DNA of 64,000 nt, taken from the IMG/VR virus record IMGVR_UViG_3300044557_000292, positions 32,001-96,000 of that record; one strand, given 5' to 3'. Within the stretch, counting starts at the first letter, position 1. Each line of letters opens with the position of its first letter. Shown one piece after another: positions 10,994-63,890 of this stretch. Under the pieces are notes generated by a model, which had not been told where the DNA came from, made no database searches, and saw only the letters and a list, made by a program, of their open reading frames with translations. The position numbers and the translations under genes were made by a program. Source of the stretch: a virus (lineage: Duplodnaviria > Heunggongvirae > Uroviricota > Caudoviricetes).

Positions 10994-12553
10994 CTAGTAC
11001 TTCGAGTACTGGTTCTGATCCCTGGAGATAGCCCTGACCTCTTTCCTCGTGGCTGCGTCCATATTCTTCCAGCAGCTGCTCTTCATGAAGAAGTTCGTGA
11101 ACACCTCGTCACGGGCGAGCTCAACGATACGATGAGAGTCAAGCCATCCCCTCTTGCATCCAAGGGCTAGGGCTTTGTAATCACTGTCACTAGCGATTGG
11201 GCCCTGATCCACGTAAGCCCCCTCACCCCATCCGTCATCCTCGTACTCTTCGCTGGGATTAGACTTGAACGCACCAGAATCGAACATGCTACTCATGATC
11301 CTATCATCAGGATGCTTACCAGAACCGTACGTGAGGATGAGACTCGATCGCATACCGCTGATCTGTTCCTCCTGACTCCACTTCTCGGTGAGACTCGCAT
11401 CTATCAGAATAGCGTTATCGTCTAGGGCTTTACGGTCAATGATCTTGATAGCATCATTGGCCATGAGTCTGGTGGATTCCCCGTACCTCGGCTCGTCACG
11501 GACCTGTTTGATGAAGCTGATGTGATCGTCTATCATAGATGAGGCCGAGTTGAGGTCATTCAGGTTCAATCCTAGCCTATTAGTCCTATTGAGTATCGCG
11601 TTCAGCTTCTTCGGGTCTACCTCCCCCGCCTTCTCATCGTGGATAAGACGTGGGATATGCTCTGACTTGTAGACGAGGCCTGGTGGGATGCTTCCATCAG
11701 TAATATTCTTCTCAATAGCGTCATCATTAGCATGCCGCTTCGAGTACTCACGATACGCGCTGTACGCATACGACATCGTGTAATCATCATGAGGGTTTCT
11801 CATGATTGTCTTCAGGTCATCATCACGGAACAGGTCGGGGCGGAGGGCTATGATGTCAGCATCATGATCATCTGACCTGTAGTCTGTCCTCATAGTCCCC
11901 GTCAACCGCGTGAGCTTAAGAGCGTTCTCCCTGCTAATCTTATCCACACGCCCGTTCTGCACCATTGACCTGAATGCTATGGAAGCAGACGCTGTTCCAC
12001 TACGATCAATGATTCCATCATGTGGCCTAGACCCGTGCTTGATGGCCATGCTAAGCTCTTCATCTGTAGACGTGCCCTTAAGAGCGTCGTAGTATCTCAT
12101 GGACACGGGATCATTACCAGCAATGAGGATGGATCGTGAAAGATCAAACTGATAGGGGGCTATGATGACGACCTCGTCTTTCGGTATGATCTCACCGTTA
12201 CTCTCACGATCAAGCTGATCCATGAGCCGATCGTCTAGTTCTGCCGCGTGCTCGGCCGTATAGGCTTCTGACGCAGCACTGAACTCATTGATCTTATCCA
12301 GATCAGGCTTTGACCCCGTCTTCCCACCTAGCGTCTTTCGAAGCGGCATCAGTGAAGCCGATGATGCAGCCTGTTCCCCAGTTTTAATCTGTTCTCCATT
12401 CGGACCACGCCAGTACCCCCTCACGTGATGCCCGGCTGACTCATGGGGCTTCACCCAGATAGCGCCCTTAACCGGAGGACTATCGTTACCAGTTGACTCT
12501 TCACCGCGTACCATGTCTTCATCCTCCCCGCTTGATGATATGAATTGACGCAA
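10994..12553 (-). CDS. tag-family protein 1 (N-terminal GYWRG tag plus unknown ~450-aa cargo)
   Basis: SPPVKGAIWVKPHESAGHHVRGYWRGPNGEQI near the N-terminus; probable start 12514 after GGGGAGG. Confidence 0.8.
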   Translation of the reverse strand: MRQFISSSGEDEDMVRGEESTGNDSPPVKGAIWVKPHESAGHHVRGYWRGPNGEQIKTGEQAASSASLMPLRKTLGGKTGSKPDLDKINEFSAASEAYTAEHAAELDDRLMDQLDRESNGEIIPKDEVVIIAPYQFDLSRSILIAGNDPVSMRYYDALKGTSTDEELSMAIKHGSRPHDGIIDRSGTASASIAFRSMVQNGRVDKISRENALKLTRLTGTMRTDYRSDDHDADIIALRPDLFRDDDLKTIMRNPHDDYTMSYAYSAYREYSKRHANDDAIEKNITDGSIPPGLVYKSEHIPRLIHDEKAGEVDPKKLNAILNRTNRLGLNLNDLNSASSMIDDHISFIKQVRDEPRYGESTRLMANDAIKIIDRKALDDNAILIDASLTEKWSQEEQISGMRSSLILTYGSGKHPDDRIMSSMFDSGAFKSNPSEEYEDDGWGEGAYVDQGPIASDSDYKALALGCKRGWLDSHRIVELARDEVFTNFFMKSSCWKNMDAATRKEVRAISRDQNQYSKY

Positions 12554-12733
12554 ATCTTACAATGAGAACCAATAAGACATCCTATTGTAAAGCATTCCTA
12601 TCTTATCACAATATTTGATCCAACTCAAAATCTAACTCGAGAAGAGCATCATGCTGGTTGCATTAATAAGATAGATGCACAAAACGTGGTGAAGATGAAG
12701 GAGCCTGCCACCGGCGCGTCGCGATCATCTGTT

Positions 12734-12749
12734 GTTATAATGGAATCGT
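12734..12749 (+). promoter_or_regulatory. conserved -10/+1 promoter motif copy 1
   Basis: GTTATAATGGAATCGT, GGCGCGTC 15 nt before TATAAT, 40 nt upstream of ORF 12789. Confidence 0.75.
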
Positions 12750-12788
12750 CAGGAAGAAACGGATAATCCCACAATTCAAGGAGTCGTC

Positions 12789-13112
12789 ATGTACGGATCG
12801 GTCATCAACATGCTTGCCACGCGCCCCCAGGAGAAGTACCCCGATGCTCACGTCGGTGATGGCGTCACGTTCGTCTACTGGTCTGACCGCACCGTGGGCA
12901 CGGTCGTGAGGGTCGAGACCCCGAATCGATGCGTGGTCAAGGATGACATCGTGGTCACGGCTGATGACGGCATCCACGCGAAGACCATCACGAGGGACCC
13001 AGACGCCCCCGAGGCCACCCTCCTCCGCACGAAGAAAGGATGGAAGGTCAAGGGGGAGCCAATCCGTGTGCTCATGGGAGTACGCGATTACTACTACGAT
13101 ATTGGCTTCTGA
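12789..13112 (+). CDS. phage-type conserved hypothetical protein
   Basis: AAGGAG RBS, promoter motif, GDGVT...WSD...GVRDYYYD pattern. Confidence 0.75.
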   Translation: MYGSVINMLATRPQEKYPDAHVGDGVTFVYWSDRTVGTVVRVETPNRCVVKDDIVVTADDGIHAKTITRDPDAPEATLLRTKKGWKVKGEPIRVLMGVRDYYYDIGF

Positions 13113-13177
13113 CCTTCAGAATCCTTCCTTAATAAACTTATAGCGTTGTCAACAAGCCAGATTAAAAGGAGAACCAG

Positions 13178-62087: not shown

Positions 62088-62444
62088 GATATTTTATGTG
62101 CGGAATGGGTAATAAGGATATTATGCTAAAGGAGGGATGGCTTCCAGTTTACACTCCAGGCAACGCTGTGTATGTGCTAGATTTTAGTGAATAAAATCAC
62201 AGCGTCCTCAGAGTTGTCGTCTGCCCGCACTATCATCAGGCTGCGACGTGATCGATGGCCTAATGGAATCAAAGCTCTTGATGACGCTGGATTCCGCGAG
62301 GCTAGTGGCCCGCGCTACAGTCAATCGCGTTATGAGAAGAACACGTCGCTATCTATAGGTTGTGACGGTAATCTATCATCGTTCGCTTTGAAGTACTGTT
62401 TTTTTTGGCACGGCGTGTCCCATTGCTTCCACGTTTGATCCCGT

Positions 62445-62460
62445 GTTATAATGGAATCGT
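62445..62460 (+). promoter_or_regulatory. conserved promoter motif copy 7
   Basis: GTTATAATGGAATCGT upstream of ORF 62487; GGCGTGTC further upstream. Confidence 0.75.
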
Positions 62461-62486
62461 TCAAAACGAATGGTTGAAGGAGATTC

Positions 62487-63005
62487 ATGATGGAAGCGCT
62501 GCAATCAAGGAAAATGCAAGCAACCGAATTGTTTAAGCCCGTTGAGAGCGCATGGTCTCGTCTCATCAATGAGTTCAGAGATATGGGGGCAGAGGTTGGA
62601 CCTGGCCCATGGTCTGATCACGTTGATGATGACAATGATCATAGCGTGATCATCAAGTACAGCAACGACCGGTACGGAACATTCCTCATCTGGCTCATTG
62701 ATCGTGCCGACGGCTTCAATGGGGACAAGCGGCGCGACGTGTGGTCTTGCTCATGGCTGATCCCCTCTGGCTCCGGTCGCGGCGGCGAGCGTGGATTAAC
62801 TGATCGGAGCGGTCATCCATTTGACACCACGATTACCGCCCAGGAATTAATTGACAGGCTTCAGACTATTGCTGACACTGACCCGTATACCGGCAAGAAT
62901 GTTGGATGGCAGAACATGCACCACGTGGGGTTCGCCGGGTTCGCATCTGATGAGTCCATTGACCGGGCGCGTCGTGAGCAGGAATACCCGGGGTGGTACG
63001 ACTGA
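62487..63005 (+). CDS. hypothetical protein
   Basis: AAGGAG RBS, promoter motif. Confidence 0.7.
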   Translation: MMEALQSRKMQATELFKPVESAWSRLINEFRDMGAEVGPGPWSDHVDDDNDHSVIIKYSNDRYGTFLIWLIDRADGFNGDKRRDVWSCSWLIPSGSGRGGERGLTDRSGHPFDTTITAQELIDRLQTIADTDPYTGKNVGWQNMHHVGFAGFASDESIDRARREQEYPGWYD

Positions 63006-63101
63006 GCTGTCGCAAAAATTGCGACAGCTCAGTGCGAAGATGAGAACACTCGGTACGGTATGACTGATCCAACTCAGTTCTAATCGTACTGATGAATTCC
63101 C

Positions 63102-63890
63102 TCATTGTCCTTCGCCCGCCTCAAGATCCTCACCGGTCCTCCTCCACCTAGCCTGGCGGAGGTAATCCCTTAACTCCTTAGGAGTGTTCACGTTATAGGA
63201 GACGGTCTCTCTAACATTCCAATCTGGATCTTTAGCCAACTCACGAAGCGTTTCCTCTGGAGTACTATGATTCCGGACTACCTCAATCTTCACGGTTTCA
63301 TCATCGTTCTTCGCCAAAATGGAGAGGACATCCGGCGGCGTGTTCTCGTTCGCAGCCACCAATTTTCTCAATCCCGTCCCACGTTGTCTGCCAAGGACGT
63401 CAAGCACTTCAGGTTGAGTGTCAGGATCCGCTGCAAGCATGTGCTTCACCTTACGCTCAGCGCCCCACGCGAGATGTAGACGTTTAGTAGAGACTGTAGA
63501 TCTCGTATACGGACTTCCATTATCGGAGGAACTCCGCGCGAGTTCCATATCGGTAACATGTCCGTTCTTATATGAATTCCATATCTCCCGGGTTGTGGCG
63601 TCGGGGCTTCTCATTATATGTCTTCCATAACTCCTGGGCCGTGATGTTTTTCTCCTCACTGTGAGACTTCTTCATGGCGGCGGGCAATGATTGGGCTTCT
63701 GCATCAATCTTCTTCCTCTCGCCATTCTTCATTGTCTTGTGGAGTTCAGATGACGTTAACACTGTCTATACTGGTTCGAGATGCTCACCGTTCGGCACCC
63801 CTTCCGGTACCCGGTGACGTGGACGCCCGCGCGATCGCAATCCTCGACCCAGGTAGCGCCCTGTACCGGTGGCTCACCATGATCACTCGT
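63102..63890 (-). pseudogene. tag-family protein 5: decayed tag plus leucine-rich-variant (LRV/HEAT-like) repeats
   Basis: GGAGG RBS then ACG-SDHGEPPVQGATWVEDCDRAGVHVTGYRKG, frameshifts and a TAG, then repeats VAANENTPPDVLSILAKND, VRNHSTPEETLRELAKDP (ORF 63102..63659). Confidence 0.7.

Follow-up and report, generated by a model that had tools for sequence, protein, structure and literature searches.

A 64,000-nucleotide stretch of DNA (hereafter the window), taken from a 419,707-bp record (bases 32001-96000) whose ends overlap and whose guanine-cytosine (GC) content is 49.5%, carries genes that begin with the same short peptide, here called the W tag, and continue into very different bodies. 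An earlier note on this DNA had described the peptide as a portable tag, and this held: the bodies are unrelated, selection acts at the protein level, tagged and untagged versions of the same body exist, and tags have been exchanged between orthologues. The viral label of the record is a database filing, and family scans of its predicted proteins show that the window belongs to a ~420-kb circular, giant plasmid-like element of conjugative type. We give about even chances to the reading that the tag is an address label for establishment proteins, which would be exported through the conjugation machine of the element into the recipient.

The W tag opens five genes in the window, all in the places previously reported, and four of them are intact. 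The gene at 10994..12514 (minus strand) codes for a protein of 506 amino acids (aa) whose body belongs to no known family (no match in Pfam, NCBIfam or PHROGs), with tag, linker and a PLRK motif at 12332..12514; that at 31727..32110 (minus; 127 aa) has a basic body with an isoelectric point (pI) of 10.1, and its tag, linker and PLSKK occupy 31946..32110. On the plus strand, the gene at 55103..56680 (525 aa; tag, linker and PLDKK at 55103..55315) has a body without a known family, the AlphaFold model of which reached a mean predicted local distance difference test (pLDDT) score of 39 with three sequences, and the gene at 56746..57465 (239 aa; tag, linker and PLNKK at 56746..56922) has an acidic body (pI 4.05, 24% Asp+Glu). 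The four PLxK-type motifs, present as described, start 37-40 residues past the tag Trp, and the leading HG of the motif as first proposed is found in three of the four intact genes, the one starting at 12514 reading ND. The fifth copy is a broken cassette of ribosome-binding site (RBS) and tag (63766..63901, minus; start at 63890), with ACG for ATG followed by frameshifts, and is 91% identical in DNA over 136 bp to the tagged gene just beyond the window. An LRV-repeat body had been assigned to one of the tagged genes, but Pfam detects none on an intact window copy; the LRV-repeat open reading frame (ORF; Pfam LRV) lies at 63102..63659 (minus), downstream of the broken tag, of which it is probably the former body, and is homologous to the bodies of the tagged proteins P0040, P0042 and P0048.

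A profile built from the four intact tags and run over 11,607 six-frame segments counted 15 copies in the record (E<=1.9e-9; next match E 0.09), namely 13 intact genes and two remnants, all of them N-terminal or nearly so. The tag is about 35 residues long, with invariant A, W, V, G, V, G, Y and W, and is followed by a linker and L-x-K-K; in the form L.?[KR][KR] after a linker of 15-25 residues, this junction motif is present in 12/13 W genes versus 69/1345 background windows, and in 11/15 distant W tags as well. AlphaFold2 (20 sequences) predicted a twisted, bulged beta-hairpin, with pLDDT of about 90 over residues 11-30. None of the 13 tags matches any Pfam family at E<=1. A fold search with the tag model gave nothing above Z 2.8 among PDB representatives and nothing at E<=0.001 in BFVD, and a profile search of PDB sequences gave 0 matches, results that do not show a new fold; the ESM Atlas returned no usable match for the tag or for P0013. 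The strict core pattern had 14 six-frame matches, the 13 tags and the C-terminal hairpin-like tail of the Fic protein (51068..51127, minus), against a mean of 0.01 in shuffles (n=100). The core had been claimed for this Fic terminus; since the tag profiles score it at just E 0.08-0.09, it is, judged by its sequence, a distant relative of the tag core and not the tag. The remnant proposed at 53689-53889 was matched by neither pattern nor profiles and is not supported. Separately, the Tyr codon of GYW is TAC in 13/13 intact copies even though other third positions vary, which could reflect codon bias or a recombination hot spot.

Pairwise BLAST among the 15 bodies gave a best E of 0.02, for a match that lies in the linker; the bodies are unrelated. 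The W-tagged proteins range from 127 to 525 aa with one tag each, their bodies from pI 4.05 to 10.1; as whole proteins 0/13 matched PHROGs, and NCBIfam gave one weak coiled-coil match. In the tag, codon positions 1-2 are conserved and position 3 differs in 684/1089 shared four-fold-type codons, a comparison that shows selection acting on the tag as protein. The copied unit (RBS, tag and linker) spans ~55 codons, with 77-92% DNA identity among five tags. A chimera is seen in g96412-. Its RBS and tag match the tag of g111219- at 91% identity across 126 bp, its body matches an untagged gene with a TATAAT promoter at 95% identity across 236 bp, and the two parts join just after LKKK. Untagged relatives of three bodies are also encoded in the record, one of them in the window (14448..14885, plus; 57% over 88 aa to a W-tagged body whose gene lies elsewhere in the record), with a TATAAT-type upstream region. 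Among nine orthologue pairs from other assemblies, four (P0003, P0010, P0018 and P0019) have a core closer to a different tagged gene, the P0018 core matching its own orthologue in 10/17 positions and another tagged gene in 16/17. Comparisons of this kind show tags being gained and exchanged by recombination.

The tagged genes also share an upstream word, which like the second tag family described below goes beyond the earlier note. In the window the word reads GTTAGATT, a candidate -10 promoter element, at 12629..12636 (minus), GTTAGATC at 32155..32162 (minus), GTTAGATT twice within 55038..55062 (plus; 55038-55045 and 55055-55062) and GTTAGATT at 56705..56712 (plus). In the general form G[TA]TAGAT[TC] it lies upstream of 11/13 W-tagged genes, a circular count because the word was derived from those genes; one of the two W genes without it lies 40 bp behind another tagged gene. 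The word sits outside the copied cassette at a variable distance, and no conserved -35 element was seen with it. TANNNT is the shape of the actinobacterial -10 element, which the word fits, and the sigma-70 factor of the element itself, encoded at g283201-284031, likely reads it. A sigma-70 consensus scan of 54800-57700 gave 7 sites, versus 4.1 +/- 2.2 in shuffles, too small a difference to be informative. Upstream of the untagged paralogues (record G000:C1 16304-16567-, 397528-397806+; window 14448-14885+), the region ends in GTTAT[AG]AT, which suggests an early or host-sigma class beside the TAGAT class.

Listing the other word-bearing genes revealed a second N-terminal family, of the form aromatic-H-x-x-P-x-G...C-x-A...C-x-aromatic-H (the Cys/His or Cys tag), on 12 proteins of the record that include an NAD-dependent ligase, an SF2 helicase, a Toprim protein, an endonuclease and, in the window, a zeta-toxin-like protein (46143..47258, minus; tag region with linker and LSKR at 47067-47258) whose gene has the word GTTAGATT at 47308..47315 (minus). 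In this independent set the word precedes 7/9 Cys-tagged genes tested versus 11/231 other operon heads (p 1e-7), with 6/231 heads in the antisense control. The 11 other heads include one Cys-tagged helicase gene, nrdD and nrdG, and five in the transfer and pilus regions, those of a 2370-aa membrane protein, the pilin-region operon, g194281, the RcpC operon and the VirB11/VirD4 operon, in the last of which the match sits just inside the ORF. The linkers of 6/11 Cys-tagged proteins also end in L.?[KR][KR]. A hydrophobic segment was found in none of the 13 W-tagged and was absent from 11/12 Cys-tagged proteins, being present in 115/336 others. Homology between the W and Cys tags was rejected (hhalign probability 1%).

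The family scans identified conjugation-type genes for a VirD4-like coupling protein, a VirB4-like ATPase and VirB11/TadA, together with TrbL/VirB6-like and CD3337-like membrane proteins and CHAP/lysozyme, the families behind the transfer calls being TraG-D_C/TrwB_AAD, AAA_10/P-loop_TraG, TrbL and T2SSE. Tad pilus genes, a Replicase-family protein, ParA, sigma-70, DnaE, DnaB, DnaG, gyrase and RecA are also encoded. A putative actinobacterial host is suggested by CrgA and NucS matches and a best gyrase match to Streptomyces (37.5%).

An alignment search of viral contigs with VirD4 gave 41 loci. Ten related records (G402-G411; 150-440 kb), also filed as viruses, encode VirD4 homologues and belong to an apparently undescribed family of giant plasmids; in the tag search, which covered these ten out of 29 related loci, all ten carried the Cys tag and none the W tag. 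The W tag is thus a lineage-restricted alternative, since W-tagged proteins of other lineages exist in protein collections. Two relatives were covered over 340 of 437 kb (G405) and 400 of 420 kb (G404). They share 64 proteins with the element of the window, including those of its type IV secretion system (T4SS), Tad pilus, sigma and replication, and the VirD4, VirB4, VirB6, VirB11/TadA, CHAP/lysozyme and sigma-70 genes of the record are conserved in both. In the covered parts, 17 N-terminally Cys-tagged genes were found in G405 and 12 in G404, preceded by a TTAGA-type word in 14/17 and 9/12 cases versus 10/202 and 11/248 other heads; the word also precedes pilin genes in G405 and the RcpC-operon head in G404. 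L-x-K-K is enriched in G405 (6/17 vs 34/387). Among their Cys-tagged proteins, 9/29 have a Pfam match, and the cargo types seen are ART, zeta, HNH, GNAT, CCA-adding, RNA ligase and 2H. Cys cargo overall mixes toxin-like enzymes with DNA- and RNA-repair enzymes. Matches to W bodies numbered 0/13 in the covered parts of G404 and G405, and cargo therefore turns over fast.

The mechanism that we propose has four steps. The first, documented above, is the copying of RBS, tag and linker onto new bodies, with exchange between genes and selection as protein. Second, both tag families and several pilus/transfer operons co-occur with the TAGAT/TTAGA word, likely a -10 element, which would place them under common regulation; read by the sigma-70 of the element, the shared word would have cargo and mating machine made together. 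Third, a plasmid factor would recognise either tag and feed the cargo to the channel, candidates being VirD4, an FtsK-like or PilT-like ATPase, a ClpB-like unfoldase or an adaptor. Finally, cargo types such as ligase, helicase, primase-like, RNA-repair, anti-defence and host-modifying enzymes suggest that in the recipient the cargo would help the incoming DNA to establish. The Cys-cargo types are, in the parts of PMC5512222 consulted, the repertoire of invasion-phase polyvalent proteins, and passages of PMC8406263 establish that an F plasmid exports plasmid maintenance proteins by conjugation. Among the roles suggested in the earlier note (co-transfer with the DNA, packaging, nucleic-acid tethering), a putative co-transfer through the conjugation machine fits best because the tagged genes share their upstream word with pilus and transfer operon heads. 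Prediction of a complex between the tag (A1) and the cytoplasmic part of VirD4 (A5, residues 205-715) scored 0.00, evidence neither way.

Several results weigh against export. Because the W and Cys tags are not homologous, a single reader for both is an assumption, and the 13 W cargoes have no family match, with a visible HExxH motif in one only. Since the word also precedes ribonucleotide-reductase and other housekeeping genes, the regulon may exceed mating. In the relatives, the word patterns were picked after viewing their tagged genes; the exact word of the window precedes 0/17 (G405) and 0/12 (G404) tagged genes, and a single pattern fixed for both relatives gave 6/17 vs 30/202 in G405. 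L-x-K-K is without enrichment in G404 (1/12 vs 28/579) and in the first relative set (4/25). No relaxase was identified with confidence: the MobC-like/replication-relaxation match in the window (37898-41137, plus) is weak (E 1.6e-4 over 58 aa), the protein bears neither W nor Cys tag, and the relaxase-type family PF13814 had no match in 5/5 records searched. The XVIPCD of Xanthomonadales T4SS effectors, as characterised in PMC8740702, is moreover a C-terminal domain of ~120 residues, carried by toxins of a killing system that Gram-negatives encode in their chromosome.

The hairpin is not confined to these elements. A search of 1.84 billion proteins with the tag gave 66 matches, among which are W-tagged proteins of other lineages, ~15 of them with new or distant bodies and three (P0040, P0042 and P0048) with LRV repeats. 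The hairpin core is repeated at the starts of modules in giant polyvalent proteins, with 13 copies in P0021 (4972 aa), and 30 pattern matches were found in six such proteins, 27/30 preceded by K-x-R and 23/30 with a charge of +2 or more; the polyprotein hairpins are thus basic, whereas the plasmid copies are mostly acidic. The modules behind them include GNAT, CCA-adding, ART and other domains. Two modules of P0021 have homologues in G404 and G405 that carry the Cys tag (E 1e-10 to 5e-18), and therefore both tags head the same cargo. Small secreted-type proteins and very basic proteins contain the core as well, and one HipA protein has it C-terminally. The giant polyproteins have weak phage-family matches, which suggest head-associated proteins; no viral contig was matched by P0024 or by a degenerate hairpin pattern, so their phage origin is only inferred. 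Matches such as P0027, P0033, P0039, P0043, P0050, P0058, P0059, P0064, P0072 and P0073 were excluded, being repeats that match only in part. A scan of viral loci with the tag alignment gave 0 matches; of the locus matches in genomes (3) and metagenomes (1), L023, L024 and L026 were chance matches in other genes or frames, and 1/401 genomes of one class matched (locus L027). A broader conjecture, possible but doubtful as a whole, is that in giant actinobacterial conjugative elements a plasmid sigma turns on the mating machine together with ~25 cargo genes bearing two unrelated, interchangeable and recombining N-terminal tags, the Trp hairpin deriving from the module heads of phage-type polyproteins, so that one signal would serve both virion loading and conjugative delivery.

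Export has to be weighed against five other explanations. The tag might act by docking inside the cell, tethering its cargo to nucleic acid or to a plasmid hub (replisome, RNA polymerase-sigma, or a pole or membrane scaffold) with no export, which we regard as unlikely. A T4SS signal makes little sense in the small secreted and very basic proteins or at the HipA and Fic C-termini, two Arg and three aromatic residues are conserved in the tag, the polyprotein copies are basic, and many Cys-tag cargoes act on nucleic acids, all of which would suit docking. However, 10/13 plasmid W tags are net acidic with a core near neutral, which weakens the simple DNA tethering of the earlier note, and docking leaves unexplained both the word shared with pilus operons and the fast turnover of cargo.

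The T4SS could alternatively be a weapon, the tag marking polymorphic toxins injected into competitors; the earlier note had used the polymorphic-toxin label, which is weakened here, and we find it distinctly improbable. The constant tag with a variable body, the zeta, ART, HNH and HExxH proteins among tagged cargo and the precedent of the X-T4SS effectors (PMC8740702) are as expected of such a system, yet 0/13 W genes have a same-strand neighbour within 40 bp (ORFs of at least 70 aa considered) that could be an immunity gene, and none of the W cargoes has a match among toxin families. Part of the tagged cargo (ligase, helicase, primase-like and RNA-repair proteins) is not toxic in kind, and each untagged paralogue is a complete gene under a TATAAT promoter of its own rather than a silent cassette.

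A slim chance is given to a proteolysis or processing signal, read by proteases of the element for timed turnover or for cleavage at L-x-K-K releasing the body. The record encodes two proteins each of the ClpP, ClpB-like and trypsin-like kinds, a basic motif marks the cassette junction, and the K-x-R in front of the polyprotein hairpins resembles a cleavage site; a folded, conserved hairpin and two unrelated tags nevertheless exceed the needs of a degron, and L-x-K-K is not general in the relatives. Processing could also form a step inside the export explanation. Slimmer still is the chance that the element is, or rides in, a virion, with the tag as a capsid-targeting sequence like that of T4 internal proteins. 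The virus filing of the record, an architecture that matches the logic of the T4 sequence (passages of PMC3012670) and the polyproteins with phage-family matches whose modules the hairpin heads agree with this. Against it, a full conjugation gene set is present, and terminase, portal, capsid and MuF were absent among 269 proteins (Pfam) and 148 proteins (PHROGs) of 415 called ORFs, scans that left out ~120 ORFs <180 aa outside the window; six-frame family searches found Terminase_6N and MuF missing from 5/5 records. The packaging role put forward in the earlier note is weakened accordingly. Least probable of all, the shared 5' end would be a mere expression cassette (RBS and first codons) spread by recombination with the peptide as passenger, as the DNA identity across the cassette might suggest, but change at third codon positions is close to saturation with the residues kept invariant, unrelated proteins far beyond the element conserve the hairpin, and the upstream word lies outside the copied cassette.

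Other features of the element were recorded alongside. The product of 37898-41137 (plus) has 1079 aa, with ~600 acidic low-complexity residues preceding the weak MobC/replication-relaxation-like domain; the next gene (41134-43497, plus) encodes a PilT-like ATPase with an acidic N-terminal region resembling that of its neighbour, and the preceding stretch of 33.4-37.8 kb, with few genes and short repeats, may hold an origin. An FtsK/SpoIIIE-like ATPase is split into pieces (window 59616-60668, minus; record G000:C1 100859-101818- and 104776-105675-) bordered by intein-like ends (..THN with Ser, Thr or Cys next, and intein-like starts at the C-termini), a candidate multi-part split-intein gene; in one piece the extein amounts to no more than about three residues, no N-terminal piece was found, and a zinc-finger (DUF4379) gene and W-tagged genes sit between the pieces. 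A dispersed repeat of ~90 nt, lying between genes and built of long inverted arms and a run of T, has ~20 copies in the record, mainly on the minus strand, those in the window lying at 3024-3186 (minus), 21524-21679 (minus), 27646-27821 (plus), 31503-31652 (minus) and 59447-59599 (minus). One copy adjoins a tag remnant; Rfam gave 0 matches in the window, the repeat included, and it could be a single-strand origin or promoter, a terminator or a recombination site.

Elsewhere, the record has an array of 50 tRNA genes (G000:C1 306483-319944-) with an embedded GIY-YIG endonuclease and a CCA-adding enzyme nearby, a type I-E CRISPR-Cas system (G000:C1 ~242600-253500) with arrays at more than one place, including both record ends, and two untagged functions of anti-defence type, a phage-like rIIA/rIIB pair (G000:C1 ~363000-367300-) and an Apyc1-like protein of metallo-beta-lactamase fold (L001:8673-9449-). 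Among 23 sequencing runs listed, 11 contain at least half of the words of the record (10 from bioreactor sludge and one from dust), possibly from few campaigns. Contigs from four runs gave patchy, low cover; in contigs of two runs, window stretches 52985-54472 and 60695-62329 are skipped with few letters between, apparently as strain variants with gene cassettes missing or replaced. A host-marker search gave 0/301 matches, and the plasmid and phage collections had no match to the window DNA, a tagged protein or VirD4.

How conjugation systems, especially Gram-positive ones, choose non-relaxase proteins is an open question, and export signals in conjugation substrates are usually hidden inside the substrate. 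Here a discrete tag, an alternative tag and a promoter word are visible in the sequence, and the question of protein choice therefore becomes testable by simple fusions. The tags also offer a route to list the early anti-defence and host-takeover proteins of little-known 150-490-kb elements filed as viruses, and in actinobacteria they could be put to use as a compact label for protein delivery.

With known systems the tag shares parts of its design. Other constant domains on variable effectors beside a VirD4-type coupling protein include, reportedly, the Bartonella BID. The XVIPCD (PMC8740702) is alike in that respect, and a VirD4/VirB-type system is present on the same replicon here, but this tag is N-terminal, ~35 residues long and without a Pfam match or immunity-type neighbours. 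With polymorphic toxin systems, the tagged genes share a conserved N-terminal part and a variable C-terminal part, while the tightly coupled downstream immunity gene is missing. Non-relaxase plasmid proteins of the F plasmid pED208 cross the T4SS in a coupling-protein-dependent manner and aid establishment; the passages of PMC8406263 at hand describe no common peptide tag, whereas here a discrete, recombining tag is visible. Giant tRNA-bearing extrachromosomal elements, as here, are pMP7017, a bifidobacterial megaplasmid (PMC10832533), and the Inocles (PMC12340149), in the parts of those papers considered; pMP7017 has its own plasmid-specific motif regulon, but with a different 34-bp word, and 'N-terminal' is absent from its main text, and Inocles have 24-32% GC versus the 49.5% found here.

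Further likenesses are to the T-even capsid targeting sequence and to polyvalent proteins. The former, as presented in passages of PMC3012670, is a short conserved N-terminal signal on diverse defence proteins delivered with the DNA; unlike it, the present system has two alternative tags, head assembly genes were not found, and no test showed a likeness in sequence. Polyvalent proteins (Iyer et al. 2017, PMC5512222, in part) resemble the tagged cargo in ART, GNAT, zincin HExxH peptidase, Toprim primase, SF2 helicase, 2H and nucleotidyltransferase domains, in a proposed early-invasion role and in T4SS context, and were found here with the same hairpin heading their modules; invasion-phase cargo is matched by the Cys-tagged proteins, the W-tagged ones offering just one HExxH motif. 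In the elements studied here there is instead a separate gene per cargo, and each such gene has a short tag of its own and shares the upstream word; several disparate effector domains per polypeptide occur only in P0021, P0022, P0024, P0030 and P0032, not in the 13 tagged proteins. The 'hairpin' of passages in PMC5512222 concerns InPase and ArdC-N, not such a tag, and neither tag is described in the literature covered, with subscription journals and supplements, including the alignment files of PMC5512222, outside its scope. The tag thus resembles the T4 capsid targeting sequence, XVIPCD and polyvalent cargo, yet belongs with none of them, and is a real, undescribed variant of the address-plus-cargo principle.

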